Source: a virus (Duplodnaviria > Caudoviricetes). Taken from it: a DNA stretch of 61,623 nucleotides. Every line of letters begins with the position of its first letter. Position 1 is the stretch's first letter. The stretch covers positions 1 through 61,623 of the IMG/VR virus record IMGVR_UViG_3300036795_000110. One strand, written 5' to 3'. A program made the translations under genes and the position numbers. Below are positions 10,325-30,119 of the stretch, piece by piece. The notes under the pieces were generated by a model. It did not search any database, had not been told where the DNA came from, and was given only the letters and a program-made list of their open reading frames with translations.

Positions 10325-11623
10325 CTAGAAAATGGGAATTGCGTTGGACAGGGTGACCTTGAGCGGGCTGTAGGCCCCGGACCAGCCGGTGGCCGTGACC
10401 GAGTTCCGGGTACTGGCGGTAGCCGTGGTCTTGAACCCGACCTCGTAGCCGAACAGCGACCGGCCCGGCTGGATCTTCGAGGTGTCGAAGTCGCAGAACG
10501 GGATATCGAACTGGACCGCCTGGTACAGCGGGCTGGAGGTAGCCAGGCCGTTCGAGGCGATGATCTGCAGCTGCGGCTGGGTGTTCTGGAGCATGTACAG
10601 CAGCGCGGTCTCGTCGGTGGCCGGGGAGAAGGTCAGTTTCCCGGTGACGCCCAGCTTGCCCCGGCCGATGACGAACGGGTTCTGGGACCCGTCGTTGGTG
10701 AAGAACGGCTCGACCTGCCGGTTGATCGTCACCGCCCACTCACTGATGTTGAAGATCTGGGCCAGCGATCCGGTAGTGGCGATGTTGACGATCGAGTTGA
10801 AGTCCGGGTAGGCGTGGACGCCGGATATGCTGGCCGTGGGCGGGGAGGCCGCGATCGAGCCCACGAAGCTGGTCAGGTTGCCGTTCCACTCCAGCAGCTT
10901 CTCACTGTTACCGGTGAAGGTCAGCGCCGAGTGGCACCCGTAGGCGTACTGCCGGGCCAGGCCCGTCGCCGGGACCTGGGTCCGGTCCGTCCAGCAGTGG
11001 GTGGGGGGCTGGCCGAAGTTGGTGTAGTTGCCCGCCCCGACGAACGAGCTGTTCAGCAGCGAGAAAACGTGGCTGTAGGTCCCGGCCGCCACCGTCGTGT
11101 TGGTCACCGCGGCGGCCGAAGCGTGGGCGATCCGGATCGGGGTAGCGGCGTTCAGCGTGATCGAGGTCGAGGCCCCGGACAGGACGGTAACGATCTCCTG
11201 GGACCCGGCCGCCCCCACGAGGATCTGCATGCCGACCGTGAACGAGGTGCCGGCCGCTACAGTGAGCGTGGTCGCGCCGGGAATAACCGGGGCGGTGAGC
11301 GTGGTCGATGGGGTGGCCGAGGGCGCAAACTGGGTATAGTCGCCCAGGATGTTGTAAACCGAGTGGCCCACCATGTCCACGTAGACGGGGCCGCCCACCG
11401 TCGTGTCCGCGATCAGCGGACCCTGGAGGAAGTCGTACATCTCGGCCATCGAGCCGCGCAGCGAGCTGTCCGGCAGCCAGATCGGCTTGTCCTCGGGCTC
11501 GAAGTTGACCACCGGGAACGTGGTACCGGTGGTACCCGGGACGGTACCGGGGACGGCCTCGCGGATGACGTTTACAAACCGCTCTTCGGTGGGGAAGATC
11601 GTGCTCGGCACTGCGGGCGGCAT
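10325..11623 (-). CDS. Major tail (tube) protein
   Basis: 432 aa, beta-rich, upstream of the chaperone; includes an inserted TTLTAPVIPGATTLTVAAG...HA domain. Confidence 0.82.
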   Translation of the reverse strand: MPPAVPSTIFPTEERFVNVIREAVPGTVPGTTGTTFPVVNFEPEDKPIWLPDSSLRGSMAEMYDFLQGPLIADTTVGGPVYVDMVGHSVYNILGDYTQFAPSATPSTTLTAPVIPGATTLTVAAGTSFTVGMQILVGAAGSQEIVTVLSGASTSITLNAATPIRIAHASAAAVTNTTVAAGTYSHVFSLLNSSFVGAGNYTNFGQPPTHCWTDRTQVPATGLARQYAYGCHSALTFTGNSEKLLEWNGNLTSFVGSIAASPPTASISGVHAYPDFNSIVNIATTGSLAQIFNISEWAVTINRQVEPFFTNDGSQNPFVIGRGKLGVTGKLTFSPATDETALLYMLQNTQPQLQIIASNGLATSSPLYQAVQFDIPFCDFDTSKIQPGRSLFGYEVGFKTTATASTRNSVTATGWSGAYSPLKVTLSNAIPIF

Positions 11624-15522: not shown

Positions 15523-17445
15523 TTAGCTGTACGGGGTGGTGTCGTGCGCCTGCAGGCCCGTGAGGATCCCGCAGTACATCGGAGCGTTGCAGAGCATCGC
15601 CCCGTACATGAACATCGAGTAGCGGAACGTCGGGTCGATGACCGGCCAGGACACCGACAGGTAGTCCTGGACCATGACCATTTCCCAGATGTTGGAAACG
15701 TTGGACCAGGAGTACGGGACGGTGTACGACATCGCTGCGGCAGTACCCTGCGGCCACCACGGGTGGACCAGCAGCTTGAGGATGTCGCGGGAGAACGGGT
15801 TTACGTACTGCGAGACGGCTGCGCCCGCAATGACGTTGTTGACCTGGTTCTGGTCGATCTTGATCTGGTAGTTGTTGGCCTGGCCCGACTGAACGATATC
15901 GTTCGACAGGTTCATGATGTCGGTGGAGTTGCCGACCAGCTCGGCCGGGGACGCCTTGAAGGCGCCGAACCCGGTACCGTACTGGGCCGACCCGTTCCAC
16001 AGGCCGTTGAGCATGTTGTTCAGGGCCGGGATCGACAGGTGCGAGCCAACCTGCGCCTGGTAGTACCCCGCCTGCCAGCCCACCCCGGTCGGGTAGTTGC
16101 TGCCGCCGGTCGAGGCGGCCCCGGTAAGCGTGGGGATGATGCCCAGCATCCGGTTGGCCCCGGAGGTCCCGGAGTCGGCCGTGGGCGGGAGGATGCCCGC
16201 GTTGGGGACCGTGGGACCCTGCAGGGTCAGCAAGTTGCCGCCCAGACCACTGTAGAACCGGTACATTGTGGTCCGGGTCGGCAGGGTGGATGCCTGGTTG
16301 TTGACGTAGACGTTGAACCACTCGGCGCCCGGCGGGAGCGCCTGCGGGATCTTGACATCGACGACCTGCGCCGAGGTGACGGTGCCAGCATCGGCGGAGA
16401 CCGCCGAGATGATCGTCTCGCCGTACTCGTTCGCGGCGGTGACGGCAACCCAGAGATGGGACGACGCCGGAAGTGCGACCTCGTTGGTGCCGGCCGTGCG
16501 GACGGTGAGCGTGGGGGCCGTGGTCGGAGCGGTGAGGGCAATCGTGTTGCCCGCGATCATCTGGAACTCCTCGTTCAGCATGAACTCCTGAAGGAGGATC
16601 AGATTCGCCAGCGCCGAGATGTCCTCGTAGCCCTGGCCCGCGAACTGGGCCAGCCAGGACAGCGCCTCGGACATCCCGAAGAACTGGTAGGGGATGTTGA
16701 GGGGGACCGCAGACTGCAGGCCGGTGACGGGCATGTTCGTCGGGAACGTACCGCCCGGCATCTGCATCGAGCTGTTGGAGACGTCGGCCAGCGAGATGTC
16801 CACCACGCTGCCATTGCCGCCACCCGTGCCGCCACCGGTCTTCGAGCCGGAGACGCCAGTGATCACGTTGACCCGGCGGCTGGTGCCCTGGCCGGTCACG
16901 CGCGGCATCTTGTTGCGGAAGGGAGTGTAGACGGGGTAGATCAGCCGCGACGGGTTGACCAGGTCGTAGGGGACCAGGCCCTGGGTCGTGGCGGTCAGGG
17001 GTACCGACAGGTTGACGTTCTTGCCCAGCTCGCCCAGGGCCTGCTCGACCTGCTGGAGGAGGTTGGACATCCACGCGCTGGAGCCCGTGCCGGGAGCGTC
17101 CATCGCGGCCATGAAGCTGTTGAACTGTCCCAGGAAGTTGGGATTCAGTCCCTTCATGACCTTCTTGGGGTTCTTGAACGACGTGCGCACGGACTTACGC
17201 AGCGCCTTGGTGGCCTGGTAGGCCAGCATGAACGTGTCCGGGTCGTCGTCGGCCAGCGGCTCCACGCCACGAACCTTGGCGTAGCCGTAGCCCTTGACGG
17301 CCTGGGGCATGTTCTGGGCGAGTGCATCGGAGCCCCGGGTGAACCGGGTGAAGTCCTGGATCTCCAGGTCAGCGTCCGCGGTACTCGTGCCCTTGGGACG
17401 GTCGAACGTGTCCGTAGTATTCGGACGATCAAGCACAGCGACCAA
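15523..17445 (-). CDS. Major capsid protein (HK97 fold) with N-terminal delta region and Ig-like insertion
   Basis: Follows the protease/scaffold; GLVPYDL...YPVYTPFRNKMPRV, HPWWPQGT; insertion TAPTTAPTL...VAVTAANEYGET...FNVYV. Confidence 0.88.
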   Translation of the reverse strand: MVAVLDRPNTTDTFDRPKGTSTADADLEIQDFTRFTRGSDALAQNMPQAVKGYGYAKVRGVEPLADDDPDTFMLAYQATKALRKSVRTSFKNPKKVMKGLNPNFLGQFNSFMAAMDAPGTGSSAWMSNLLQQVEQALGELGKNVNLSVPLTATTQGLVPYDLVNPSRLIYPVYTPFRNKMPRVTGQGTSRRVNVITGVSGSKTGGGTGGGNGSVVDISLADVSNSSMQMPGGTFPTNMPVTGLQSAVPLNIPYQFFGMSEALSWLAQFAGQGYEDISALANLILLQEFMLNEEFQMIAGNTIALTAPTTAPTLTVRTAGTNEVALPASSHLWVAVTAANEYGETIISAVSADAGTVTSAQVVDVKIPQALPPGAEWFNVYVNNQASTLPTRTTMYRFYSGLGGNLLTLQGPTVPNAGILPPTADSGTSGANRMLGIIPTLTGAASTGGSNYPTGVGWQAGYYQAQVGSHLSIPALNNMLNGLWNGSAQYGTGFGAFKASPAELVGNSTDIMNLSNDIVQSGQANNYQIKIDQNQVNNVIAGAAVSQYVNPFSRDILKLLVHPWWPQGTAAAMSYTVPYSWSNVSNIWEMVMVQDYLSVSWPVIDPTFRYSMFMYGAMLCNAPMYCGILTGLQAHDTTPYS

Positions 17446-17448
17446 AGG

Positions 17449-19848
17449 TCAGCCCTCCTTACCGGCTGCGAGCAGGCCCTTTAGCACCTTGCGCGCGTTC
17501 TGGCGCATGGTGGGGTCTCCTCCATTGGCGAATGATCCAACAAACCGCAGATATTCATCGGTTTCAAGATCGTCGGAGCTACCAGCCCCGGCCGCCTTGT
17601 CGATGTAGCTGTGCCGGTCCACCGGACCGCCTAGCTCGGGGAGCCCGCGGTAGGGCGCCTCTAGCGGATCGGGCATCGCGCCCAGGCGCGACACCTCCTC
17701 CTCCAGGTCCCGGATCTTCCGCTGTGCCTTAGCCAGGATGCGCCGCACCTCTGGCTCCTCGGCCGCGTCCTTCCGGACCTGGTGACCCGGCTCTCCTGGA
17801 GCCGGAAGCAGATTGCCGCCCTCGCTGGCGGAGCCCATCGGTGACGGCCGGAGTCCCGTACCGCCGTCGCCCTGGGTGTAGTTGTGGCGTTCCACGTTCA
17901 TAGTGCACAGGTCCGGCCAGCCCGAGGCGACCTGCTCGTGCAGGCGCTGCATCGTGGTCATGGCCTGGCCCATCACCGCGGTGGAGGAGGTGGCCTGGCG
18001 GCCCTCGCCTGGCGACGGAGACTGGTGCCCCGCCCCGACGTACCCCCTCGTAAAGTCTGCCGCGTCCACGTGGTGCACCGGGGCACCCGGCAGCCCGCTG
18101 CCGCCCCCCGCGCTTGCGGAGAGCGACGGGTGGCCGGCCGAGACGTATCCTCGGGTAAACATGCCCGGGTCCACGTCCTGATGGGCGGCGGGACGGTCGT
18201 CGATCCCGGCCTGGAACAGGCTGGGGAACAGCTCGGGGTACGCCTTGCGGGCGTGCATCAGGATCCCCCGGTCGATCCGCTTGATGGCGCTGGCGCTCTG
18301 GGCCATATCAAGGAAGTAGTTGGCCGCGCTCAGATTGCCGTCGTTGATCGCCGCGACAGCAGCCCCCTGCAGCTCCTCGACCGGCATCGCATCCCCCACG
18401 CTCTTTAGGGCGTGGGTGCGGCGGACCTGCTTCTCCCGCAGCGCCGGGCAGACCGCGTCGTGCAGACGCTGCATGGTAGCCATCGCCGGGTCGCCCTCGG
18501 CCTTGTCCACGTGCATCCCGGCGTCGTGCTCGAAGCCCTCGGTCACTGCGCCGTCTGGCTCCCGGTGCTTGCCGGCCGGAACCGAGGTCTTGTCCTTGGC
18601 CCCGCCGGCCACCTGCGAGGGGTCCCGGCCGCCGCTGTCCCCGCGGTGAGCCCCGCCGGGGTTCGCCTTGATCGAGCGGACCAGTTCCTTGCGCTGTGCC
18701 TTGAGCAGGGCCTTGAGTGCTTTGTTCTTGGCCTTGGTGTCCGGCGGGCCGTCGTCGTCCGAGTCCGGGTCGTCGCTGGAGCTGGAGTCCGGGCCGCTGG
18801 AGTCGTCGTACTCGTCGTCGTCATCCTCGGAATCGGCGTTCTCCGCGCCGTCCTGGGCCGCGTCGGCCTTGATGACCATACCCAGCTTCTTGCCGCAGCC
18901 CTTGCACCGCTTGGCGCCGGAGTCGTTCTTGGTCTTGCACTTGAGGCAGGTCTTCATGCCATCGGCGGCGTCGGACTTGTTTGGGGTGCCGTCGTCGTCC
19001 GCGTCGGCGTCGTTTCCTGCCTTGTTTTCGCGCAGACTCTCCGGCATATCAGCGTCTCCCATACCGAACTTTCGATGGGCAATCGATCGGATGCTTGAGC
19101 GGACCTGTGCCGGGTCGTCCGCGTGGTGGGCCAGGCCAGCCGCGTCTCCCACGTCGGCCCGGTTCTTGATGGGGAACGTCTTGCCGGGGCCAGCGAAGTC
19201 GGCGTCGTCCAGGTCCGAGACGTCCCGGCCGCCGGAGTCGACGACCTTGCCGTCCTTCAGCTGGCGCTTGAACACGTTGTGGCGCAGGTAGTCGTCACGG
19301 CGCAGGTCGGCCGGGGTCGGCGGGGGAGCGCCGAACACCTTGTTAACGATCTCGGCCGGGCCGTCCTTGGCCGCCTTCACCAGCTGGAACGTGGTGTTCT
19401 TGTTGGATCCCCGGTCGACCAGGGATACCTCCCCGATCCGGCCGCCGACGATCGTCCCGCCGGGAGCCGTGGGGTCGGTGAAGGTGATCACGGGGTCCAG
19501 GATGCCGACTGAGAAGTCGCGCAAGACGCCCTTCTCGACCAGGCGCTTGGCCGTGTCCTCGACCACCAGGGCCTTGAGCCAGTGCTGGCCGCGCGCCTTG
19601 TCGACCTCCAGCGCCATCCCCTTACCCGCTGGGTACAGGAATGGGGAGTGCTGGACCCGGACGTTACCGCCGGTCTCGATCCAGTCTTGCAGGGCCTTGC
19701 CCGACCACCCGGGCTTAACCCGCTGATGGTCGGCGTCGACCGAGCCATCGGTGCACGGGCCATACACGACCAGGTCACCATCGTCTGTCCGGTCAAACTT
19801 CTCGATAGGGAAGCTGAGATGGACCTCACCCACGGCAGCAGTGGCCAC
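17449..19848 (-). CDS. HK97-type prohead protease fused to accessory and scaffold domains (799 aa)
   Basis: VYGPCT...VDADHQ, VRVQH (His), FSVG (Ser), EVSLVDRGSN; then a DUF6582-like segment, a zinc ribbon, an acidic tract and a coiled coil. Confidence 0.9.
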   Translation of the reverse strand: MATAAVGEVHLSFPIEKFDRTDDGDLVVYGPCTDGSVDADHQRVKPGWSGKALQDWIETGGNVRVQHSPFLYPAGKGMALEVDKARGQHWLKALVVEDTAKRLVEKGVLRDFSVGILDPVITFTDPTAPGGTIVGGRIGEVSLVDRGSNKNTTFQLVKAAKDGPAEIVNKVFGAPPPTPADLRRDDYLRHNVFKRQLKDGKVVDSGGRDVSDLDDADFAGPGKTFPIKNRADVGDAAGLAHHADDPAQVRSSIRSIAHRKFGMGDADMPESLRENKAGNDADADDDGTPNKSDAADGMKTCLKCKTKNDSGAKRCKGCGKKLGMVIKADAAQDGAENADSEDDDDEYDDSSGPDSSSSDDPDSDDDGPPDTKAKNKALKALLKAQRKELVRSIKANPGGAHRGDSGGRDPSQVAGGAKDKTSVPAGKHREPDGAVTEGFEHDAGMHVDKAEGDPAMATMQRLHDAVCPALREKQVRRTHALKSVGDAMPVEELQGAAVAAINDGNLSAANYFLDMAQSASAIKRIDRGILMHARKAYPELFPSLFQAGIDDRPAAHQDVDPGMFTRGYVSAGHPSLSASAGGGSGLPGAPVHHVDAADFTRGYVGAGHQSPSPGEGRQATSSTAVMGQAMTTMQRLHEQVASGWPDLCTMNVERHNYTQGDGGTGLRPSPMGSASEGGNLLPAPGEPGHQVRKDAAEEPEVRRILAKAQRKIRDLEEEVSRLGAMPDPLEAPYRGLPELGGPVDRHSYIDKAAGAGSSDDLETDEYLRFVGSFANGGDPTMRQNARKVLKGLLAAGKEG

Positions 19849-19882
19849 GGATCACCTCCAGGACCGGCCATTCATAGCCGGA

Positions 19883-19912
19883 GTATATCGGCATCGTTTG
19901 GGTTACGGCAAG
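19883..19912 (-). promoter_or_regulatory. Housekeeping-sigma promoter for the protease/MCP operon (TTGCCG-N18-TATACT)
   Basis: Minus strand TTGCCG taacccaaacgatgccga TATACT upstream of GGAGG and the GTG start. Confidence 0.6.
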
Positions 19913-20034
19913 CGGATATTCATCGTGGGCGTGCCTACCGAGATCGCCAGCGTGTTCACCCGGCCATCGACCAGGGCCAGCGCGATGGGCGGAGTAGGGT
20001 TGCTGTTCAGGACGGGCTGGCCCGCGTTAGCCAC
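19903..20034 (-). CDS. 43-aa hypothetical protein
   Basis: Manual translation VANAGQPVLNSNPTPPIALALVDGRVNTLAISVGTPTMNIRLP; fills the operon gap. Confidence 0.45.
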   Translation of the reverse strand: MANAGQPVLNSNPTPPIALALVDGRVNTLAISVGTPTMNIRLP

Positions 20035-20239
20035 TGCGCATCCAATCCGGTACAAATGCCTCGGCAATCGAGTGCCGGCCGTCCTGCGGGATATCCGAGC
20101 AGCAGGCCGGGCACGGCATCCCGGCCCCGCCGCACGGGCAGCAGGCCGGGGGCGGGGTGGCGCCCTCCCACGGCCGGTCCGGGTGATTCTCGCAGACCAC
20201 GCCGGTATCGAGGCAGCCCAGGCAGTGCAGCCCGGTCAC
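20027..20239 (-). CDS. Cys-rich zinc-finger protein
   Basis: CLGCLDTGVVCENHPDRPW...CPCGGAGMPCPACC; start overlaps the upstream stop. Confidence 0.65.
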   Translation of the reverse strand: MTGLHCLGCLDTGVVCENHPDRPWEGATPPPACCPCGGAGMPCPACCSDIPQDGRHSIAEAFVPDWMRSG

Positions 20240-20643
20240 GGCTGGATCGCCGGGTCGAGCATCCACTGGCCCCAGAACAGGTTGGTTGCGAACTCGGGGT
20301 CGGCGTAGTCCATCCACAGGGCGTGGAACCACGTTCCGGGCGGGGTAAGCGCCTGGCTGGCCGGCGGGTACAGCGCCAGGGTCAGCGTGGTCAGCAGCGA
20401 GTTGCCAGCGATCGTGATCTCGCCTGCCCCGGCCGGAGTCGGGCTACCCGCGTGGTCGCTGGTGATCTTGATGATGGGGCTGGTATCGGCGGGGGCCGCC
20501 TTGACCACGTATTCGAACGTATGCGACCCGGGCGGGAACGGGTCGGTTCCGTCGTCGCCGGTCCACAGCTGGATGTCCCACGTGGTGTTGCCGCCCCACG
20601 GCAGCCGCAGATCCCACTGGTTGGAGCTGCTGCCCAGCGCCAT
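20236..20643 (-). CDS. Ig-fold (BppU-like) structural protein
   Basis: Beta-strand pattern WDIQLW...FEYVVK...GEITI...LTLAL...GQWML. Confidence 0.6.
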   Translation of the reverse strand: MALGSSSNQWDLRLPWGGNTTWDIQLWTGDDGTDPFPPGSHTFEYVVKAAPADTSPIIKITSDHAGSPTPAGAGEITIAGNSLLTTLTLALYPPASQALTPPGTWFHALWMDYADPEFATNLFWGQWMLDPAIQP

Positions 20644-21752
20644 CAGTAGACCCCACGCGCGGGCAGGGAGTTCATCGAGGCCGCCCACTCCTCGGCCGAG
20701 TCCCGCGGTGTGGCCTGGCCCGCCCCGGTGTTCATGAAGTTCCCGGAACTGCGCCGGGCCAGCTCGTTCTCGATGTTACCGGCCAGGGCAGCCGACTGCC
20801 CGGCGTGGGGCACGATCTCCCCGGCCTTGTGGCGCTGGACGTCGGCCACCAGGTCCCCGTGGGCCGCCTTCAGATCGCCCGGGTGGGCCTGCCGGATCAT
20901 CTCCGCCGACTTGCCCTTGTCGTCGGCCGCCCGCAGCGACTCGGCCGACACCTTGATCCAGCCGTGCTCGTACCCGTGCGGGCCGACCTTGCCTACCGCC
21001 GGAGGCATTCCGTGGGTGTGGGCCAGGCCGTAGGCTACCCCGAACCCGCCCTGCGCCATAACGTTGTGGATGTGCTCGTGCTGGTCGATCAGCTGCTGGC
21101 GATTGAGTTTCTTCGGACCTACCCGCTGGCCGATCACCGGATTGCCCGAGTGCTCGTTCTCCAGATGCCTCCGTAGCTCGCCAACCGGCATCTTATCGGC
21201 GGTCTTGCGGTCGTTGGACGGGGTACCCTCGGGCACCGCGCGGACCCAGCCGTGGGTGAACCCGTGCGGGCCGGCCTTACCGATGCCCGCGCGCAGATAC
21301 TTGACCAGGTCAGGGACGACGGTCCGGTTCTCGTGGGCGGTAACCAGCGAGGCCGCATCCCGGGGGCGGCCCTCCCGGATCGCCGCGGCCAGCTCGTCGC
21401 CGTCGCCGTTGCGGGGCCGGTACCGGCCGGTCGGGCTGTGCCTCAGGTCGTGGCGTTCCTTGGTCAGCTGGTAGATCGCCGGGCCGAGGTCCATCTTTCC
21501 ACGCTCCATCCGCGCGTGCTGCGCGGGGTAGTAGCCCAGGGCCTCGTGGTGGCGCAGGTTGCAGTACCCCTTGGCCTGGTCGGGGGTCATGTGGCCGTGC
21601 TCGGTTACCTGCGCTACGCACCGGTCGAAGTCGCCCGGCGTGCCCCACGCGATCGCATCCGAGAAGGCGTGGTGCGTGGGGCCGCCGTGGCCGTGCCCGG
21701 TCCAGTAGTCCCGTAGGGTCTGAGCGTTCCCGTCCTTACTTGGACTGGGCAT
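20643..21752 (-). CDS. Head-locus polyprotein: N-terminal LRxYW/WGTPGDFxRC/GYCNLRH domain plus two GPxGYxHGW-tagged modules
   Basis: ATG 21752 (MPSPSKDGNAQTLRDYW); tags at 21246..21278 and 20958..20990. Confidence 0.8.
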   Translation of the reverse strand: MPSPSKDGNAQTLRDYWTGHGHGGPTHHAFSDAIAWGTPGDFDRCVAQVTEHGHMTPDQAKGYCNLRHHEALGYYPAQHARMERGKMDLGPAIYQLTKERHDLRHSPTGRYRPRNGDGDELAAAIREGRPRDAASLVTAHENRTVVPDLVKYLRAGIGKAGPHGFTHGWVRAVPEGTPSNDRKTADKMPVGELRRHLENEHSGNPVIGQRVGPKKLNRQQLIDQHEHIHNVMAQGGFGVAYGLAHTHGMPPAVGKVGPHGYEHGWIKVSAESLRAADDKGKSAEMIRQAHPGDLKAAHGDLVADVQRHKAGEIVPHAGQSAALAGNIENELARRSSGNFMNTGAGQATPRDSAEEWAASMNSLPARGVY

Positions 21753-22116
21753 CCCCGGCGGTCTCCTCGGCTGGCTCCGCCGCGTCCTCCGGGACCGTCT
21801 CCTCGTCCGCGGTGGGCTCGGTGCCGGTGACGGCACCCGTCGCGTTAACCACGGCAGCCGGGGGCGGCCCGGCGATCTCGGTGACCGCCGTATGCAGGGC
21901 GTCGTGCGCCTCGACGAGCTGGGAGTGGGCGTGCTCCAGACCGGCCTTGGCCGGGTCGTTGCTACGTGCGCCGAGCTGGTTCCGCAGGTTGGCGCGCGCC
22001 TGGCCCACGTGGAATACGGCATCCCACAGCTTGGTGAACAGTCCGGCGAACGCGCCGGGGACGGGCGCGGGGGTCTCCGCCGCTGGGTCCACGTTCTCGG
22101 GTGCGGTATCGGTCAT
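21736..22116 (-). CDS. Hypothetical helical protein
   Basis: ATG 22116 preceded by a TACAAT -10 element and RBS. Confidence 0.65.
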   Translation of the reverse strand: MTDTAPENVDPAAETPAPVPGAFAGLFTKLWDAVFHVGQARANLRNQLGARSNDPAKAGLEHAHSQLVEAHDALHTAVTEIAGPPPAAVVNATGAVTGTEPTADEETVPEDAAEPAEETAGDAQSK

Positions 22117-22156
22117 GGCGCGTTCCCATCCTCGTCGAGTAGGTGAATCGATGGGG

Positions 22157-22336
22157 TCATTGTACCGGCACGAGCCGGGACAGGACCAGCGCGTCATCCT
22201 GCAAATGGGCCAGGTCGGCCTCGTTGGCCGGGTCGGCGGCCAGCTCGTTTACCCGCTCCAGCGCCACCCGCGCGCTGCCCTTGTCCTCGAACGCCTCGTC
22301 GACCAGCCGGTCGGCCTCGTCCGTAGCTGTACTCAC
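22157..22336 (-). CDS. 59-aa acidic protein translationally coupled to the MuF polyprotein (candidate immunity/inhibitor)
   Basis: GTGA overlap with the MuF stop codon. Confidence 0.55.
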   Translation of the reverse strand: MSTATDEADRLVDEAFEDKGSARVALERVNELAADPANEADLAHLQDDALVLSRLVPVQ

Positions 22337-25300
22337 TTCTCCTCCTCCGAGTACCTGCTCACGTACTGCATCGCGGATTCCCACGCCTCGATGGTCTCGC
22401 CCTCGCCGCCCAGGCTCTTGGTCGTGGCGGTCCAGGACCGGGTGATCGCGCCGGCGATGACCCGCTGGGCCTGAGCGTCGTCCGGGTTGTTCATCCCGGC
22501 GGCCCGCATGATCTGCTTGGCCATCGTCGGGGCCTTGCCCGCCGGTCCCTCCCGGTTGATCTCGTCGGCTAGCTCGCGCATCCGGGTAGTTGTGTTGTTG
22601 CCCTCGGCCGAAGCCACCTTAGAAACCCAGCTCATGGCGGCCTGGGTAGCCCCGGTGTAGTGGCCCCACGACAGGCCCGAATCGATCGCATGGAGCGTAC
22701 TCCGGCCGCGGGCATACTCCTCGGCTGTCATGCTCGGGGCATTACCGAACCCAAGGTAGTGGTCTCCGATGCCGATCTTCTGGAAGAACTCCGGCGCGTG
22801 GTAGGTGGCGCCTAGCTCGGTGAACCCCTCCTCGATCGCGGCCCCGGCCGGGTTCTGGTACGCCTCCGTGTTGTCGTTCTGCCCGTCACTGCCCCAGTCC
22901 TTGAAGCCCTGGGCATGGATCAACTCGTGCAGGATGGTAACCGGGCCGCGCAGGTCCGAGCTGGCCACCCGCCCTTGTCGGGTTCCGCCTCCGGTCCCGC
23001 TGACCGCCCGGACCAGGTGCTTGGCCACGTCCTCCCGGACCTGCATCACGTTGTCCCAGCCCATCCGGGCCAGGATCGCCGCGTTGCCCTTCTCCGGTAT
23101 GACCCGGACCGACTTTATCCCGGGCGCGTCCCGCGCGCCCAGCAGGCCGGGAACGATGTCCTGGGCCTTGGCCACCAGATCGGACAGCGTGCCCGCCGTA
23201 GTGCCCTTGCGCTCGGCCTCGTGCTTGGCCTGGGCCTCCAGCGCCATGGGCTTTAGCGCGTCCCACGCCTTGGCGTAGTCGCCCTCCGGGTCGCGCTCCA
23301 CCACCGAGGGCATCATCGCCACCGGCAGCGGGTGCATGTCCATCGAGGTGTCGTCGGAGTCGGTGTAGGTGGCCATGATCTGGGGCTCGTGACCTGGCCT
23401 GGTGATCAGGCTGAACCGGGACTCGTCGTGCTTGCTGTCCGCGCTGATCCACAGGTTTACGCCGTAGAACGCCTTCGGATCGGTGGTAAGGGCAGCCTGG
23501 CGCCCGTCCGGCAGCTTGTACAGGTGATGGGTCTGCGGCAGCCTGCGCTGGAACGGCGACCCGTAGCCGCTACCGACCGGCTTACTGGTGACCTCGAAGC
23601 TGTGCTCGGACCCGGTCCTGAACCGGACCGTTGCCCGGGTGCCCTCGTTGTTGATCCCGGTGACCTCGCCCTTGCCGTTGCCCTTGGCCGGGTGGCTGAC
23701 CGCCTGGCCGATCGTGGGGATGCCGACGAAGATCCACCCGTGAATGTAGCCCTTGGGGCCGACCTTGACCAGGCTGGGCTGCACCACTTTAGCCACGGTG
23801 GCCTGCTGCCTGGCCTCCGCAAAGTTAGCCATCAGCGCCTGGTACCACTCGGACCGCTTGCTCTGGGCGAACTCGGGCTCCAGCGCCCGCAGGCCCTGCT
23901 CCCACTTGGCCCACTGGGCCGCGCTCCATCGGGCGCCGGACCGCTCAAGTTCCTTGCGGAACGGGCCGGTAGAAGATAGTGGGGGAGCGGTATACCGGGC
24001 GTGGCTGTGATCGATCGGCACCGGCTGGCCGTCCTCGGCAACCATCCAGTTACCATCGGCCCGGTCGGTGTTGCGGGTTAGTTTGTCCAGCAGTCCGATT
24101 CTTTCCCCGGCCGCCGATTTGGTGTACTTTTGCAGCCCTGGCTCGTTGATCTTGTAGCTATCGACCCCCAGGTCCACATTCGACTTGCCACGGACCACGG
24201 GCTGCCACAGCTTACCGCCCTTGACTAGGACGTGAGGAGCGCCGGCGCCGATCACGTCGGACACCCGGGAGGCCAGAACCTCCGCGTCGCGGTTGGTCTT
24301 GTCGCCGCTCTTGCGAATCCACTCGCTGCCGTCGTTGAACTTTACCCGGGCGGTGGCGTGGGTGGTCTTGCCGCCGGCCTCCTCGCTGGCGATCCCCGAC
24401 TTGTGGGCCGCGTCCAGGACGTGAGCAGCGTTCCCTCCGGGCGCACCCACGAAGACCCACCCGTGGATGTAGCCGTGCGGGCCGACCTTGGTCACCATAC
24501 CACCAGTCAACCCGGCAGTTGTCTCCTTGTCAACGCGGGCCGCCGCGGTCGAGGCCGGGTCGGAGCTGGTCCGCTGGTAGACGTGGGTCTGCAGCACGGC
24601 AGGAACGTCGGCATAGGCCACCTTGCCCACCCACGCGGGCAGCGGGACCCCGGCATCCCGGGCGGCCAGAGCACGGTGGTGCCCGTCCACGTCCAGGAGC
24701 TGCTCGCCCGGCCCGCCCTTGGTCGGCAGGTCGGCCAGTACCGCGGGCTTGACCTTCTCGCCGTCCCGGAACTTGTCCGCGAACCGGCCGACCTTGCCGG
24801 GCTGGTGGCTGGCCGCCCACGAGTCCATATCGTCGTGGTCGATCTCGTCCCACGTCACGCCGCGCGGGCCGCTCCACTCCGCCCGCAGCACCCACTCGAT
24901 CGATCCGGGCGGGTAGTTCTCCAGCAGTTGCTCGTAGACCTTCTGGGCGGTCTTGTCGGACTTGAACATGCTCGGTCGTTGCAGTGCGGCAACTACGCGC
25001 GGTAGGTCGGTGGCCAGCTCGGGCCGCAGGGGCTCCTGGTGGGCGATCTCGTCCGGCAGCACCCACGCCAGGGCCTCGTGGTGGGTACCGTCCGGATCGT
25101 CCACCTCATCCCTATCGCCGGTCGACATGCAGTGCTCGTTCGCCACGTCCATGATGAACGCCCGGTAAACGCCGTTGGAGCTGGTCCAGCCCGGCCGCGG
25201 GATACCGCCCGGCAGCAGCTTACCGACCTCCTCCTGCCATTCGCGGACGGCAGCCACGATGACCAGTTCCCCGGGCTCCAGGGTCCCGCCGGGGAACTCC

Positions 25301-26280
25301 CAGCAGCCGGGCGCCTTGTCGCCGTCCTCCTCGGACCGCTTGATCATCAGCACCCGGCCCGTGTCGGCCGCGCGCAGCACGACACCGGCCGCCACCACGC
25401 CGGCCTTCTGGATACTGGTAAGACGCATCGGCGGGATACCGGATTCCGGCAGGTCGTCCGGCAGGACCGCACAGCGGCAGGGGCCGGGGTGGGCCGGGGG
25501 GGCTACCACGCCGGAATCGAACAGTCCGCCGATGGGGATGATGCCCTGCTCCTGGTTGGCCATACAGACCGGGCACACCCGCTCGTCGTGGGCGGTACTC
25601 CAGCGCTTGCCCTCCTGGTTGGCCTCCCGGTACGCACCGAGGGCGGCCAGCGAGGTCGCACGGTTCAGCTCGGTCGAGGCGATCATGTAGTCGCGGGACG
25701 GGTTGTCCAGGATGGGCCGGATATTCTCCGCGATCTCGTCGGCCGACGAGCCGCTGTCAAACCCGGCCGCCAGCTGGTCGGCCAGCTGCCGCATCCGGGT
25801 ATCCGCGATCGACTTGATGGTCTGGATACCGTAGGTGTCGAGCATCTGCTGGAGGCCGTCGCCCGCCACCAGGCGGGCCGCGTCCACGTCGCCGGGCTGC
25901 CAGTGGTCCCAGAACGTGGAGTCGTAGGCCGAATCGACCATCTCCTTACCCGCCTCGCGGCCGACCGCAAACCCCTCGGTCCACAGGTTGGCCAGGATGC
26001 GGTGCAGGGCCTGGGTTACCACGTTGGCGATGCCGCGCGCCACCAGCCAGCCCCACGCAGCCGGGTTCGGCATGGCCGACTTCTCGACCGCCCCGGACGG
26101 GACCGACTCCAGCCACAGGCGGGCCAGGTCGAGCGGCTCGACCTGGGCCAGCGAGCGGGTCAGCTGCTCGCCGTAGATCCGGGCTAGCTGCTGGTCGTGC
26201 CGCCACCCGGACCAGGGCCGCGCAGAGGAGCCGTCGCTGCTGTGCTGCCACTGGTCCAGGGCCTCGGCCAGCGCGATCAT
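22333..26280 (-). CDS. MuF (SPP1 gp7-like) minor head protein fused to Nudix, ParB-like, HipA/PI3K-like kinase, SH3/Tudor-like and HExxH metallopeptidase domains
   Basis: IASTELNRA...KRWSTAHDERVCPVC...PPAHPGPCRC (MuF); GGTLEPGELVIVAAVREWQEEVG (Nudix box); DGHHR; K...EVLAS...NTDRADGNWM...IDH; HELIH...EEGFTE. Confidence 0.88.
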   Translation of the reverse strand: MIALAEALDQWQHSSDGSSARPWSGWRHDQQLARIYGEQLTRSLAQVEPLDLARLWLESVPSGAVEKSAMPNPAAWGWLVARGIANVVTQALHRILANLWTEGFAVGREAGKEMVDSAYDSTFWDHWQPGDVDAARLVAGDGLQQMLDTYGIQTIKSIADTRMRQLADQLAAGFDSGSSADEIAENIRPILDNPSRDYMIASTELNRATSLAALGAYREANQEGKRWSTAHDERVCPVCMANQEQGIIPIGGLFDSGVVAPPAHPGPCRCAVLPDDLPESGIPPMRLTSIQKAGVVAAGVVLRAADTGRVLMIKRSEEDGDKAPGCWEFPGGTLEPGELVIVAAVREWQEEVGKLLPGGIPRPGWTSSNGVYRAFIMDVANEHCMSTGDRDEVDDPDGTHHEALAWVLPDEIAHQEPLRPELATDLPRVVAALQRPSMFKSDKTAQKVYEQLLENYPPGSIEWVLRAEWSGPRGVTWDEIDHDDMDSWAASHQPGKVGRFADKFRDGEKVKPAVLADLPTKGGPGEQLLDVDGHHRALAARDAGVPLPAWVGKVAYADVPAVLQTHVYQRTSSDPASTAAARVDKETTAGLTGGMVTKVGPHGYIHGWVFVGAPGGNAAHVLDAAHKSGIASEEAGGKTTHATARVKFNDGSEWIRKSGDKTNRDAEVLASRVSDVIGAGAPHVLVKGGKLWQPVVRGKSNVDLGVDSYKINEPGLQKYTKSAAGERIGLLDKLTRNTDRADGNWMVAEDGQPVPIDHSHARYTAPPLSSTGPFRKELERSGARWSAAQWAKWEQGLRALEPEFAQSKRSEWYQALMANFAEARQQATVAKVVQPSLVKVGPKGYIHGWIFVGIPTIGQAVSHPAKGNGKGEVTGINNEGTRATVRFRTGSEHSFEVTSKPVGSGYGSPFQRRLPQTHHLYKLPDGRQAALTTDPKAFYGVNLWISADSKHDESRFSLITRPGHEPQIMATYTDSDDTSMDMHPLPVAMMPSVVERDPEGDYAKAWDALKPMALEAQAKHEAERKGTTAGTLSDLVAKAQDIVPGLLGARDAPGIKSVRVIPEKGNAAILARMGWDNVMQVREDVAKHLVRAVSGTGGGTRQGRVASSDLRGPVTILHELIHAQGFKDWGSDGQNDNTEAYQNPAGAAIEEGFTELGATYHAPEFFQKIGIGDHYLGFGNAPSMTAEEYARGRSTLHAIDSGLSWGHYTGATQAAMSWVSKVASAEGNNTTTRMRELADEINREGPAGKAPTMAKQIMRAAGMNNPDDAQAQRVIAGAITRSWTATTKSLGGEGETIEAWESAMQYVSRYSEEEK

Positions 26281-29200
26281 GCGGGGACTACTTCCACGTG
26301 AGTAGTGCCGTCCGGCTCTACCCGGACGGAGGCTATTTTGTATTTGCCCCGGGATACGTACTCGTCATCGTCGGAGTTTGGTCCATGGTTGTACCGGGCC
26401 AGCGATACGGCCGGTACTCCGGACCCGTGCATGACCACCTGGTGTGCTCTCGGCTGCCAGCCTTCGACTCCTTCTCCCCGGGCGTACCGGCCGGCTGATG
26501 CCGGATCGCCGGACCACGACAGGGCGTCGTGCTCGAACGTAGCCCCGGGCTTGAAGATCGACGTATCGTCTACCGACATTCCACGATACAGATGGTCCTG
26601 CGGCGTACTGTCGTAGTCGATCAGTTCGTTCATGGCAGAGGCTGCACCGACCAGCTCGCGATCCCAGTCACTCTGGTCGAACAGGACCTTATCGCCCTTG
26701 GCGTTGGTAATGTCAGGAAACCTGGCCCGGTCAATCCGGCCCTCCGGCCGGTCTGTGTACGGGTGCTGGCCGTTGCGCAGGTTCCTCATGACATGCCGGA
26801 CAGCCAGCATATCGCCATAGGAACTGCTCCAGAGGGTCACCGCCCGGTCCGTGCTGACCCGTTCCCGTAGCCCGGCGTAGCGCCTGCTCGCGTCGGTGTA
26901 CTGACCCGGTACCCGATATTTCTGGGCGATCTGCTTTACCGGTCCGCTGTAGTCGATCTGGCGGCTGGCAGGATCGCCCGCATGGACCCACCCGTGGGAG
27001 TAGCCCTTAGGGCCAACTTTGGAGACCATCGTAGTCGTCCCACGCGCTTTTGGGCCAGCATCACCTGCCTTGGTCACCTGGTGGATCTGGGCTCCCTCGG
27101 GCTGGTCGCAGAACGTACAGGCGCCGTATCCGCCCCCGGCAAAGCGGTGGGGCCTGCCGCTGGCCTCCAGGTCGTACGGGGCCAGGCCCTGCTGCCCGCC
27201 CTGCTCGTTCAGCGGGGCCGAGGTCGACATCACCTTGGCCACCTGGCCGTGCAGGATACCGGTAACCGCGTCGTCCGGCAGGAACTCGGGCTCCCACGGC
27301 TGGCGGCCCGAGGCCATCGCCGCGATGGCCGCCTGGACCACGTGGGTGGCGATGTGGCGGGCCAGGCCCGGGTCCACCCCGGCGGCCATCAGTTCCCGGA
27401 TCAGGTGGCCGGTCACCGCGGCGGCTGCCGCGTCGTCGGCCTTCTCGCCCGGCTTGAGCGGGGTAATCGGCAGCTCAGTGTGCTGACGCCGGACCTGGTA
27501 GTATTCGGCCAGCTCTCGGCCCACCTCGGGCATCTTGTCCAGCAGCAGCGGCCCGAGGGCCACCAGCGACAGGCCGCCGGTAAAGAACGCCATGGCGATC
27601 GAGGCCGCCACGCTGACCAGGCGGATAGCGGCAGCGGCCTTGGCCTCCTTGTGCTTCTCGGCGTGCAGCTCGGCCCGTAGCGCGTTGATCTGCTTCTGCA
27701 GGTCCTGGACCTGGGCGTCGGTGTACACCCGGGCCTGGTTGTTGGCCGTGGCCACCGTTCGCATGTGGGTAGGCGGCTTCGCTGCGCCGGTCCCCAGGTC
27801 GCTGGTACCAGCTCCGGGGTCCTTGGACCACCGGCCGCGGGCGTCGCGTAGCTCGCCCTCCCACCCGGACTTGCGGACCTGCTCGACCTGGCCCGTGATC
27901 GTGGGCGGGCCGAACGCGCTAATCACGAACTCGCGAGTAACCGCTGCCGCGTCGTCCGGGTCCAGGTGCTTGAGCAGGGATCCCACGTGGTCCATCACCA
28001 GGCCGGGCAGGTACCGGGTCTCCCACGTCCTCAGCTGGCGGCCCTTGTTCAGGTGGCGCCGGAGGGCGTCCAGCTCCGACAGCATCGCCTTGGAGGAGGA
28101 GCTGGCGTGCTCCTCGTCGGCGCCGGCGGTCAGCGGGGGCCGCACCGGAGGCTCGAGTGGTTTACCGGCAGCGAAGTCCTCGTGCATCTGCTGCTGGACA
28201 CCCGCGTGGGCCTCGGCCGCGTCCTGCCGGGACTGGCCGACCTTGTCGCCCGGAGCCGGTCCCACGTGGGGCGGGGGAGCGCCGGGAGGGCCGCCGGGGG
28301 GCGGGGTCTGGCCGGGAGGGGCTCCCGGCGGCTTCGGGGCGGCTCCGGGCGGGCTCGGGGACCCGGCCGGGGGCTTCTGCCCGGGTGGCAGCGCCGGGGG
28401 GCTCCCCGGGCCGCCCGGAGCCGGGGGGGCACCGCCAGGCGGGGGCGGGGCACCGATCGGCTGCGGGGGAGGCGTGCCCATCGGCCTACCGGAGGTCGGG
28501 TCGATCGAGCCCAGCGGGACCATGCCCGCGGTAGCGCTCACGAACACCGGGTCGGAGGTGATCGGCAGGCCCCACGGGGCCTTGTCCAGGGCGATCCGGC
28601 ACTCGTCGATCGAGCTGAACCCGAAGGACACCATCTGGACCAGGCGCTCCACCAGGGCGTTTTCGTCCTCGTCCTCCTCCAGCCCCTCGAAGACGAACCT
28701 CATATCCTCCTGGTGCCAGACCTCCTGGATGATCACGTTGAATACGTCGGTGAGGAAGGCCAGGGTCGGCTTAAGGGACTTGCGCTGGTTGGTGCTCTGC
28801 GACGCCTTGGCCATCTGATTCGCGGCGCCGGGGGACTGGGTGGTCGAGACCTTGGGGCTGACACCTAGCTCCATCGGCATCACATCGAACGCCATGCACA
28901 CCTGGGTCATCACGATCTCGTCGAACTGGTCGGCCAGGGCCACCGGCCGCATCGGGAACACCTTGGAGCCCGGCGGCAGGGCGATCGACTTGTGCTTCCA
29001 CGCCGGGTCGCCGGCCAGGGCGTTCTGCTGGTTCTGCCAGATCTCCAGCTGGTTGGGCGTCCAGCCTAGCTGCTCGCCGGGGCTGATGTAGTTGCCCGGG
29101 ATCGTGCCCTCGTCGAAGAAATCCATCTGGAACTGCTGCTTACGAAGGCCGGTGATCACCGGGATGATCGACCGTTCGATCGGCGGGAACCCGTAGGGCG

Positions 29201-30119
29201 TCCACGCCCTGGCCGTGTAGGGCAGGTACATCAGCTGGTCGCCCCGGTACTGCTTGACCGGGTTCTCGCCGTCCATCTCCTTCACGTCGTCGCCGCGCAG
29301 GATCTCCATCAGGTCGCTGCGCGGTACTCCGTAAAGGTACTGCTGGTACCCGGGCGACGGCGGGCTGACCCGGCCGCCCCGCACGTTCACCAGGGGCCGG
29401 ATCGTGTTACCGGAGATCAGCTCCAGCGCGGCCACGCTGCTACCGAACGGTCCCTTGCCCGCCAGCTTGGTCGGGTGAAGGTACAGGCTCAGGGCGTCGA
29501 CCGACAGCATCTCCTCGATCACCGCGTCGATGTACGATCCGAACTTGATGTAGTCGGGGTCGGGCTTGCGGAAGAACTTTACCGCGATGGCCTTTCGCTC
29601 CGCGAACTCCTTGTGGGCCTTCTTGTCGCCGCGCATGGCACGCTCGGCCTCGGCCGTGGGCATGATGTCCCACTCCAGGCCGCGGATCTCGGACTTGCGC
29701 ACCTGCAGGGCAGCTCGGGCCACCGAGTACAGGTCGGCGTACATCCGCAAGGTGCCGAAGGAGGCCAGCTTGAACCCCTCGGACCCGGGCACACCGATTG
29801 GCATGTTCCAGCCCACCGGCATCTCCCGCTGGCGGGGGCCGGGCCGCTCCAGGTCGCCATCGGGGACGTTCACCGCGGTGGTCTGGATCGGGCTTAGCGG
29901 GGTGAACGTCCCGGCCAGGAACTCCATCGGATCGCGGGGCAGCGCCTGGCCCGTGCTGTGCCCATAGATCGTCTCCTGGTACTGGGCCACCAGGGGCGAG
30001 ATGTCCTTGCGGACCTCGTGCCGGCGCTTGGCCCGGTTGATTGCCCTAACTACGCGTGCCGGGTCAGTGGCCAATGCCGTTGTCCTTAATGGTCTGGACG
30101 ATCCGGTCGTGGTGGGCAT
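26277..30119 (-). CDS. Portal protein with a long C-terminal extension ending in an ADP-ribosyltransferase-like domain (start may be TTG 30074)
   Basis: Portal core of about 530 aa (PYGFPPIE, FFDEGTIP, FDVMPMELG, SIDECR), a Pro-rich linker, a hydrophobic helix, a tag at 26988..27020, then LYRG / LSWS / DDEYV. Confidence 0.88.
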   Translation of the reverse strand: MPTTTGSSRPLRTTALATDPARVVRAINRAKRRHEVRKDISPLVAQYQETIYGHSTGQALPRDPMEFLAGTFTPLSPIQTTAVNVPDGDLERPGPRQREMPVGWNMPIGVPGSEGFKLASFGTLRMYADLYSVARAALQVRKSEIRGLEWDIMPTAEAERAMRGDKKAHKEFAERKAIAVKFFRKPDPDYIKFGSYIDAVIEEMLSVDALSLYLHPTKLAGKGPFGSSVAALELISGNTIRPLVNVRGGRVSPPSPGYQQYLYGVPRSDLMEILRGDDVKEMDGENPVKQYRGDQLMYLPYTARAWTPYGFPPIERSIIPVITGLRKQQFQMDFFDEGTIPGNYISPGEQLGWTPNQLEIWQNQQNALAGDPAWKHKSIALPPGSKVFPMRPVALADQFDEIVMTQVCMAFDVMPMELGVSPKVSTTQSPGAANQMAKASQSTNQRKSLKPTLAFLTDVFNVIIQEVWHQEDMRFVFEGLEEDEDENALVERLVQMVSFGFSSIDECRIALDKAPWGLPITSDPVFVSATAGMVPLGSIDPTSGRPMGTPPPQPIGAPPPPGGAPPAPGGPGSPPALPPGQKPPAGSPSPPGAAPKPPGAPPGQTPPPGGPPGAPPPHVGPAPGDKVGQSRQDAAEAHAGVQQQMHEDFAAGKPLEPPVRPPLTAGADEEHASSSSKAMLSELDALRRHLNKGRQLRTWETRYLPGLVMDHVGSLLKHLDPDDAAAVTREFVISAFGPPTITGQVEQVRKSGWEGELRDARGRWSKDPGAGTSDLGTGAAKPPTHMRTVATANNQARVYTDAQVQDLQKQINALRAELHAEKHKEAKAAAAIRLVSVAASIAMAFFTGGLSLVALGPLLLDKMPEVGRELAEYYQVRRQHTELPITPLKPGEKADDAAAAAVTGHLIRELMAAGVDPGLARHIATHVVQAAIAAMASGRQPWEPEFLPDDAVTGILHGQVAKVMSTSAPLNEQGGQQGLAPYDLEASGRPHRFAGGGYGACTFCDQPEGAQIHQVTKAGDAGPKARGTTTMVSKVGPKGYSHGWVHAGDPASRQIDYSGPVKQIAQKYRVPGQYTDASRRYAGLRERVSTDRAVTLWSSSYGDMLAVRHVMRNLRNGQHPYTDRPEGRIDRARFPDITNAKGDKVLFDQSDWDRELVGAASAMNELIDYDSTPQDHLYRGMSVDDTSIFKPGATFEHDALSWSGDPASAGRYARGEGVEGWQPRAHQVVMHGSGVPAVSLARYNHGPNSDDDEYVSRGKYKIASVRVEPDGTTHVEVVPA

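Follow-up and report, generated by a model that had tools for sequence, protein, structure and literature searches.

A conserved header tag of phage cargo modules whose first three residues appear to follow a lineage-specific prohead-protease rule

The 61,623-base window analysed here (the whole of IMG/VR record IMGVR_UViG_3300036795_000110; 66-70% G+C) is the complete genome of an uncultured, siphovirus-like phage, in which a portal fusion protein, a MuF polyvalent protein and the product of gene 20643 carry five copies of a 20-residue peptide tag. An initial annotation of this DNA had noted recurrent hydrophobic-x-Lys sites at domain boundaries and had read them as one protease code for the whole head module, by which polyproteins would be cut into many small products. 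We would recast this observation as a conserved header on cargo modules, with its first three residues under a lineage-specific prohead-protease rule. In public data the tag stands at the start of modules of unrelated families, and its third residue is mostly Lys or Leu, in association with two different protease families. Comparison of these sequences makes it reasonably probable, in our judgement, that the tag combines a cut site of the prohead protease with a conserved header for cargo; a protease of S78/gp21 fold would cut there, and the modules would be freed for delivery to the host.

In the window the tag has the consensus [ILV]-x-K/[VA]-G-P-[KH]-G-[YF]-x-H-G-W-[IV]-x-[VA] followed by G or S, where the slash marks the predicted cut and P3 to P1 are the three residues ahead of it. 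All copies are encoded on the minus strand. The single copy in the portal fusion P0001 occupies residues 1032-1051 (VSK/VGPKGYSHGWVHAGDPA; positions 26967-27026; predicted cut after K1034). The two copies in the MuF protein P0002 lie at residues 596-615 (VTK/VGPHGYIHGWVFVGAPG; 24436-24495; cut after K598) and 837-856 (LVK/VGPKGYIHGWIFVGIPT; 23713-23772; cut after K839), and the two in P0003, the product of gene 20643, at residues 247-266 (IGK/AGPHGFTHGWVRAVPEG; 21225-21284; cut after K249) and 343-362 (VGK/VGPHGYEHGWIKVSAES; 20937-20996; cut after K345). The five sites had been listed in the initial annotation as MVSK/V, MVTK/V, SLVK/V, GIGK/A and AVGK/V, which overlooked the 17 further conserved residues C-terminal to them: each continues into GP[KH]G[YF]xHGW, and these are the sole five such matches in the six reading frames. 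A possible sixth tag at 43794 (minus strand) was weak (E=0.38) and was taken as a chance match. At the DNA level the five copies show synonymous differences and have flanks unrelated to one another; selection therefore acts on the tag peptide. The DNA alignment rules out that the five tags arose from a DNA repeat or by recent gene conversion.

A profile built from 12 tag copies was run against 1.84 billion representative proteins. At E ≤ 1e-3 it matched 472, which stand for protein clusters of uncultured phages, and at E ≤ 1e-10 it matched 64; many of the matched proteins have two or three copies. Alignment of 226 public copies on their Trp revealed that information is absent before P3, rises sharply there and ends 7 residues past the Trp, with the consensus [ILV]-x-[KL]-V-G-P-[KHE]-G-Y-x-H-G-W-[IV]-x-V-G-x-P. 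The positions within proteins are equally regular. At least 85 residues follow the last tag in 151 of 152 proteins (241 copies), fewer than 75 residues precede the first tag in 70 of the 152, and the minimum spacing from tag to tag is 80 residues; the tag therefore opens modules. It lies at most 45 residues from the N-terminus in 56 proteins, 49 of which start with Met, and stand-alone genes with leaders down to 2-6 residues still retain P3-P1. A search of 50,697 cultured-phage records with one tag copy (tblastn) gave no true match, and a sequence search of the PDB with the tag profile gave nothing useful. Several stand-alone cargo genes (P0076, P0080, P0095, P0113 and P0144) have a leader of the family F-A-D-P-V-x-x-R-L before the tag; this motif also occurs in protease linkers of the K lineage described below (L001/L009/L010/L007), and may be a second shared element.

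The modules behind the tag are diverse. Pfam searches of 129 tag-headed modules from de-duplicated viral loci, with 10 of 150 listed tag proteins scanned besides, identified ADPrib_exo_Tox in 11 modules, ART in 5, Arr-ms in 4, Zeta_toxin in 4, PI3_PI4_kinase in 4 and NUDIX in 2. No listed family matches more than 11 of the 129, and most modules are without any match. This content agrees with that of the phage polyvalent proteins as they are described by Iyer et al. 2017 (PMC5512222). Arr-ms, a rifampin ADP-ribosyltransferase family, is an unexpected passenger of a capsid.

The residue at P1 separates tag-bearing phages into two groups. A scan of IMG/VR found 74 loci with the tag, 64 after de-duplication with 132 tags (the loci being partial, +/-10 kb), in which P1 is K in 81 tags, L in 43, F in 4, R in 3 and E in 1. 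The K dialect reads [LVI]-x-K and the L dialect [IV]-[ED]-[LF]. Among 34 multi-copy loci, 19 carry only K, 14 only L or F and one the series K,E,K, and K and L occur together in no locus; under permutation the mean was 20.7 mixed loci and the minimum 10 in 100,000 runs. The same was found in the global set, where 68 multi-copy proteins divide into 36 with K only, 32 with L only and none mixed (permutation mean 36.1, minimum 21 in 20,000). The dialects are linked to the protease family: the family of the window's protease, P0004, was found in 27/37 K loci and 0/27 L loci, and another protease-like family of ~410 residues in 0/37 K loci and 17/27 L loci. The tags share the strand of the protease in 57/57 and 27/27 cases and lie upstream of it in 47/57 and 27/27.

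The protease-scaffold protein P0004 (799 aa; 17449-19848, minus strand) comprises a protease core at residues ~5-150, a zinc ribbon at 301-322, an acidic tract and a helical C-terminal part. The AlphaFold2 (AF2) model of its N-terminal domain has a predicted local distance difference test score (pLDDT) of 78.8, with values above 88 in the core and below 50 at residues 152-192. Its best Foldseek matches are chains of T4 gp21 (5jbl; E=1.4e-5, prob 1.0, TM 0.69), followed by herpesvirus proteases. His67 and Ser113, the latter in the motif FSVG, are invariant in 29/29 relatives and form a candidate catalytic pair. The Pfam family PF04586 (Peptidase_S78) is matched by 15 of the 29 aligned relatives (best E=4.2e-5), the window's own domain being without a match at E ≤ 1. 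By its modelled fold and the invariant His and Ser, the domain is a prohead serine protease with the S78/gp21-assemblin fold, and comparison of its putative sites suggests a specificity for x-K. A predicted complex of the protease core (residues 1-152, 29 alignment rows) with a 36-residue tag segment (12 rows) scored 0.01 against a mark of 0.32 and, run without controls, is neutral.

Other parts of P0004 also recur among relatives. The zinc ribbon (CxxC...CxxC; window 18883-18948) is followed by an acidic Asp/Ser tract at residues ~330-375 (18720-18880), and a ribbon akin to it stands directly ahead of a tag in a related locus (L003:9007-9900). A motif of the form D-x-D-F-A-G-P-x-x-x-F/Y-P-I ... 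LAHHADDP lies behind the protease domain (P0004 residues ~203-230, window 19159-19240; L004 ~10553-10729) and recurs in K-lineage proteins. In some relatives a full tag lies inside the protease polyprotein itself, shortly past LVK/A (L014:17977-, L056:10022-); the protease can therefore also be a carrier of cargo.

The K dialect recurs, unaccompanied by the remainder of the tag, at two boundaries of head proteins. At the end of its domain the protease carries QLVK158/AA (19369-19386, minus strand), a candidate self-cleavage site; the pattern [LI]-[VA]-K/[AS] ends the protease domain in 25/26 orthologues and lies in the segment of pLDDT below 50 right behind the folded core. Near the N-terminus of P0004, PI.K is retained in 22/26. 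The second boundary is LGK142/NVN (17011-17028, minus strand), the predicted maturation cut at the junction of propeptide and core in P0005, the major capsid protein by position (640 aa; 15523-17445, minus strand), with a predicted helical N-terminal propeptide (~1-142) and a conserved core (143-640). The K142 column is basic in 25/25 homologues (24 K, 1 R), the most conserved block of the protein stands directly behind it, and P3 is L/V/I/M in 18/25. A second propeptide site, KVMK98/G, is kept in 16/19 by the count of dialect columns. Residues 131-631 of P0005 match phrog_13692 (E=2.7e-55), and its gene lies between the protease and tail genes; a profile search against PDB sequences found nothing, and an AF2 model from a 19-row alignment was poor (pLDDT 44.7), with helices at 23-137 only and at low confidence. 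In the K-lineage contigs L028, L029/L031 and L081 the capsid homologue is spread over two to four open reading frames (ORFs), which could reflect inteins, introns, frameshifts or assembly errors.

The protein of the L lineage is probably a protease resembling Mu gpI. Its N-terminal domain has an invariant His and Ser and is followed by an acidic linker and a helical C-terminal domain, and its gene lies just upstream of the scaffold and capsid genes. The Atlas feature search labelled it Mu-like_Pro (0.96, 19/30 matches), and PF10123 (Mu-like_Pro) matched 1/14 members at E=4.6e-5 and 23.6 bits, below the cut-off of 25.2. It carries [IVL]-D-L/[ST] right after the N-terminal domain in 14/14 members and [IVLA]-[ED]-L/[AT] ahead of the C-terminal domain in 13/14, with a third site in 10/14. 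Conserved K-dialect columns are absent from this protein, and conserved L-dialect columns from the K-lineage head proteins; in four other L-lineage families neither dialect was found. Homology of the two sites at the ends of the protease domains is not supported, hhalign showing no relation between the two protease families (probability 0.43%), and these sites are analogous at most.

From these comparisons we infer a sequence of cleavage, packaging and delivery. The portal or MuF parts of the carriers would bring them into the procapsid, and P0004 would cut after the Lys at P1 of the tag. The same rule of a hydrophobic P3 and a Lys at P1 would remove the capsid propeptide at K142/N143 and, at K158/A159, would free P0004 from its scaffold-like tail. 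Five modules, one ADP-ribosyltransferase-like, one kinase-like, one with the motif HExxH and two small, would be released in the capsid, each beginning with VGP or AGP, and would pass into the host together with the DNA. The predicted products are residues 1-1034 and 1035-1280 of P0001; 1-598, 599-839 and 840-1315 of P0002; the part up to 249, 250-345 and 346-459 of P0003; 1-158 and the rest of P0004; and 143-640 of P0005 as the putative mature capsid protein.

This scheme covers much less than the code proposed by the initial annotation, whose "MuF" is P0002 (22333-26280) and whose "Portal" is P0001 (26277-30119). All 24 of its tetrapeptides do occur in the translations of the genes named, but the list was selective: the five head proteins (4,493 residues) hold 54 [VILM]-x-K sites, 30 of them unlisted. 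With 2,000 within-protein shuffles, these 54 compare with 37.6 +/- 5.4 expected (p = 0.003), and the other 51 called proteins of the window have no excess (61 vs 67.6 +/- 7.3). An overall excess in the head proteins is present, if modest; only P0002 is enriched individually (19 vs 11.6, p = 0.0105), the other four proteins are not, and the five tag copies account for 5 of the ~16 excess sites. Lys was described as scarce, which holds genome-wide (2.6% outside the head proteins) and less so within the five head proteins (4.3%). Since one site occurs per 83 residues, about one boundary in five would have a site within +/-10 residues by chance, and nearness to a domain boundary, on which the proposal leaned, is therefore weak evidence.

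Conservation separates the sites more clearly. The Lys is kept in relatives at the tag sites MVTK/V (11/15), SLVK/V (31/39) and AVGK/V (6/6), and at PIEK/F (25/27), QLVK/A (28/29), ELGK/N (19/22) and the portal site QVRK/S at residue 142 (19/22). Further kept sites are HLNK/G (12/13), WIRK/S (9/10) and the unlisted KVMK/G of the capsid propeptide (18/21). It is not kept at SIQK/A (1/7), AVEK/S (1/9), HVDK/A (4/15) or QVTK/A (0/2). The sequence evidence backs about nine conserved sites and not 24. One head-protease signature remains plausible for the cargo carriers, for K142/N143 of the capsid protein and for K158/A159 of the protease, where it is kept and where P1 switches from K to L with the protease family. 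A general code yielding many small products finds no such backing, most of the listed sites lying within chance expectation and several not being conserved.

Several points weigh against the tag being a cleaved cargo header. The evidence for cleavage is all comparative. Dialect and capsid type split together, the K-type major capsid protein family being found in 23/37 K loci vs 0/27 L loci and the L-type in 0/37 vs 14/27, and shared descent alone could give the link between dialect and protease; the only evidence beyond lineage is the boundary sites of the head proteins, seven conserved columns in all. At the K142 site P3 is Ala in 6/25 homologues and Thr in 1/25, not a large hydrophobic residue. 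P0005 is taken for a capsid protein from its gene order and a match to an unannotated PHROG, its boundary between propeptide and core is drawn from conservation and helix prediction, and the label of the L-lineage protease derives from a language-model look-alike, one sub-threshold Pfam match and architecture. The 17 post-cut residues exceed the needs of a plain protease site, and the tag may be mainly a binding element. These residues are the same across lineages with different proteases and capsids and are therefore probably not a matter of protease specificity; a docking header, or one for retention and ejection of the cargo, would be the more likely role, and is the least supported step of the scheme. 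More tentatively, the header could be a two-part label, with P3-P1 read by the resident prohead protease (in dialects K, L and perhaps others) and GP-x-GY-x-HGW acting as a capsid-retention or exit signal that is independent of the protease. We think it rather unlikely that the tag serves docking or targeting alone, as a peptide that would remain uncut and bind a component of the head, the K and L forms reflecting co-evolution with that partner. Such a role would agree with the 17 conserved residues past the presumed cut, many more than protease sites need, with retention of the tag at the extreme N-terminus of stand-alone genes, where there is nothing to separate, and with the identity of its C-terminal half across lineages with different proteases and capsids. 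However, conservation begins exactly three residues before the K or L, those residues behave like protease subsites, and this short dialect is seen again, with no other part of the tag, at the junction of the capsid propeptide and where protease domains end. Since T4, as described in PMC9958956, combines targeting with cutting, binding may be part of the truth.

The remaining explanations are less probable still. Cutting of the five proteins into many small products, at each hydrophobic-x-Lys that lies close to the start of a domain, would be in line with the modest overall excess of sites and with the extra conserved sites HLNK/G, KVMK/G and WIRK/S, and prohead proteases often make several propeptide cuts, as described for SPN3US (PMC10052503); but the named boundary markers SIQK/A, AVEK/S and HVDK/A are not conserved, 30 equivalent sites went unlisted and four of the five proteins are without individual enrichment, and we hold this improbable. 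Processing by a built-in peptidase has a candidate in the C-terminal module of P0002, with HELIH at residues 1118-1122, and Iyer et al. 2017 propose that polyvalent proteins are processed by zincin-like metallopeptidases (PMC5512222). Homologues of this module, however, were found in just 2/37 K loci and 4/27 L loci (partial loci, +/-10 kb), searches of Pfam and of PDB sequences gave no match for it, and the dialect follows the prohead protease family and not the HELIH module; the idea appears very unlikely. We would give as little weight to the tag being a recombination junction, or the first strand of one duplicated domain family, with no role in processing. Copy number does vary among close relatives, loci with a 74%-identical capsid showing one copy in the locus DNA examined and the window five, which suggests turnover of cassettes, and a His-rich stretch lies behind a subset of tags; against this, DNA identity does not go beyond what the peptide needs, the flanks are unrelated, conservation stops 7 residues past the Trp, and the modules belong to unrelated families (ADP-ribosyltransferase, zeta toxin, kinase-like, Nudix).

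The carrier proteins combine virion domains with the tagged modules, which stand at their ends or interrupt them. The portal fusion P0001 (1280 aa; 26277-30119, minus strand) has a portal core, a Pro-rich linker, a conserved extension, the tag and an ADP-ribosyltransferase-like module; its residues 95-517 match the portal family phrog_2662 (E=6.9e-30), with a weak match to PF04860. The module behind tag 1 (246 aa; 26280-27017, minus strand) was assigned by the Atlas feature search to ADPrib_exo_Tox clusters (score 0.95, 181 shared features), and Pfam and PDB sequence searches gave no match for it. The portal extension holds a 100-residue linker rich in Pro, Gly and Ala and, further on, a long hydrophobic stretch resembling a membrane helix, both unusual in portals; the two odd regions lie at residues ~545-640 (window 28200-28490) and ~828-860 (27540-27640).

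The MuF polyvalent protein P0002 (1315 aa; 22333-26280, minus strand) comprises MuF (165-272), Nudix (296-420), a DGHHR region, the two tags, a kinase-like module and the HELIH module. The matches to PF04233 (MuF, E=4.8e-9) and PF00293 (NUDIX, E=9.4e-17) are both above Pfam's cut-offs, and that of the kinase-like module to PI3_PI4_kinase (E=1.6e-5) is under it. Residues 840-1315 have no family or PDB match, and a PDB sequence search with 599-1315 gave nothing useful; the one sign of a possible zincin-like domain there is the HELIH pentapeptide. P0002 joins the virion domain MuF to NUDIX and to the sub-threshold kinase-like and HELIH regions, the architecture of a polyvalent protein (at least two unrelated enzyme domains plus a virion domain), and P0001, which joins a portal to an ADP-ribosyltransferase-like module, is likewise polyvalent. 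The region of P0002 that was initially called ParB-like contains a DGHHR motif (residues 532-536, window 24673-24687), without a Pfam or PHROG match. In a related locus (L003) the polyvalent protein has a true ParB_N domain.

P0003 (20643-22022, minus strand) consists of a phrog_6439 domain (residues 94-174, E=2e-18) followed by the tag-headed small modules 250-345 and 346-459, to which no family was assigned. Its residues 1-90 (21753-22022) are rich in Arg, Pro, Ser and Thr and match nothing, and the true start is probably M91 (nucleotide 21752); the gene call in the public database begins at M145 (P0006, 315 aa). Gene 20643 is overlapped by a same-strand ORF of 153 aa in a different frame (21736-22197). 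The homologue of this gene in a related viral contig (L001:9587-11449) has its phrog_6439 domain enlarged by ~390 residues, placed between '...KGYC' and 'NLRHH...'; with a Cys at its start, this insert looks like an intein.

The late operon is siphovirus-like and lies on the minus strand, in the order large terminase (34250-35797), portal fusion, MuF protein, gene 20643, protease-scaffold, capsid and tape measure (6590-9163). The window has no DNA relative among the 50,697 cultured-phage records, and cultured-phage matches to its capsid protein are distant, coming only from Thermoanaerobacterium and Brevundimonas phages at 26-28% identity. A scan of 185,579 species genomes for the tag found just 6 loci, all in metagenome-assembled genomes (5 actinobacterial, 1 Verrucomicrobiaceae). 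The host of the window's phage is probably an actinobacterium, an assignment that is weak with six such loci, and the tag-bearing phages probably form a large uncultured group with actinobacterial hosts.

Phages are known to send proteins into the host along with their DNA, and except in T4 and the giant phages little is known of how they select, load and trim them. The tag marks the start of hundreds of enzyme modules, including ADP-ribosyltransferases, zeta-toxin kinases and Nudix hydrolases, with many lacking an assigned family. With the tag as a search query, the "first-strike" proteins that a whole phage group injects could be catalogued from metagenomic sequence. The choice of Lys or Leu at P1 by protease family would be a simple rule for prohead-protease specificity, and processing of polyvalent proteins may be the work of the ordinary head protease and not of built-in peptidases. 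If the header were sufficient for loading, it would be a candidate tag for packaging chosen proteins in phage capsids. If it were a two-part label, loading, trimming and injection would extend to whatever protein it precedes, and it would be a portable cargo-delivery tag for HK97-type capsids without a described counterpart.

No description of the tag was found in the texts searched; letter-string searches gave unrelated papers only, and supplementary alignments were not covered. The polyvalent proteins described by Iyer et al. 2017 join unrelated enzyme domains (ADP-ribosyltransferase, Nudix, ParB-like, zincin-like) to virion domains such as MuF, and are predicted to be packaged and delivered early (PMC5512222). 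Their mix of domains is that of the window, the processors proposed there being in-built zincin peptidases; the main text, supplementary alignments aside, contains neither "linker", "HGW" nor "GPxG", and "prohead" only in a reference. Cultured phages have comparable fusions: MuF-VIP2, portal-MuF and MuF-protease proteins are described for Microbacterium phages by Jacobs-Sera 2020, together with very large virion proteins that are "likely processed" (PMC7302621), and MuF is fused to VIP2-type ADP-ribosyltransferases in cultured phages (Jamet 2017, PMC5576092; PMC7302621). The accounts of these fusions in the two papers describe no junction motif, and six terms for processing or linkers are all absent from Jamet 2017 (PMC5576092). 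For MuF systems, the relevant passages of Zhang 2012 give papain-like peptidases only.

Two known head-maturation systems share features with that of the window. In SPN3US, a phage compared here together with phiKZ, the protease gp245 is described as recognising one motif, AXE/, in the capsid, portal and ejection proteins and in its own C-terminal self-cleavage, with propeptides of 20 to 254 residues and sites mapped by mass spectrometry (PMC10052503). One protease motif is thus common to several head proteins and to the protease itself, as proposed here; the SPN3US motif, as described, is limited to three residues with no long header after the cut, whereas the sites in the window are predicted from sequence. 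In the HK97 gp4/gp5 system the N-terminal delta domain of an HK97-fold capsid protein is cleaved off by a protease of the S78 family, the likeness being qualified by P0005, where the HK97 fold of the core is a candidate (AF2 pLDDT 44.7, no PDB sequence match). The HK97 maturation cut falls after Lys. We know of no tagged cargo chains in HK97.

Another parallel is with T4, where gpAlt is an injected ADP-ribosyltransferase and the prohead protease has Glu at P1, in contrast to the Lys or Leu of the tag phages. The internal proteins IPI-III and gpAlt, which are non-essential, are described as being built into the prohead core, where gp21 trims short N-terminal peptides from them; the protease also cuts capsid proteins, and IPI is injected with the DNA (PMC9958956). 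The likeness includes the gp21 fold of the window's protease and a short peptide N-terminal to the cargo, the tag lying in some genes 2-45 residues past the start codon. In T4, however, the targeting peptide stands before the cut and is discarded, whereas the conserved part of the tag follows the predicted cut and would remain attached to the module. The sequence of the tag is unrelated to that of the T4 peptides, and the cargo of the window is chained in polyproteins on the portal and MuF proteins.

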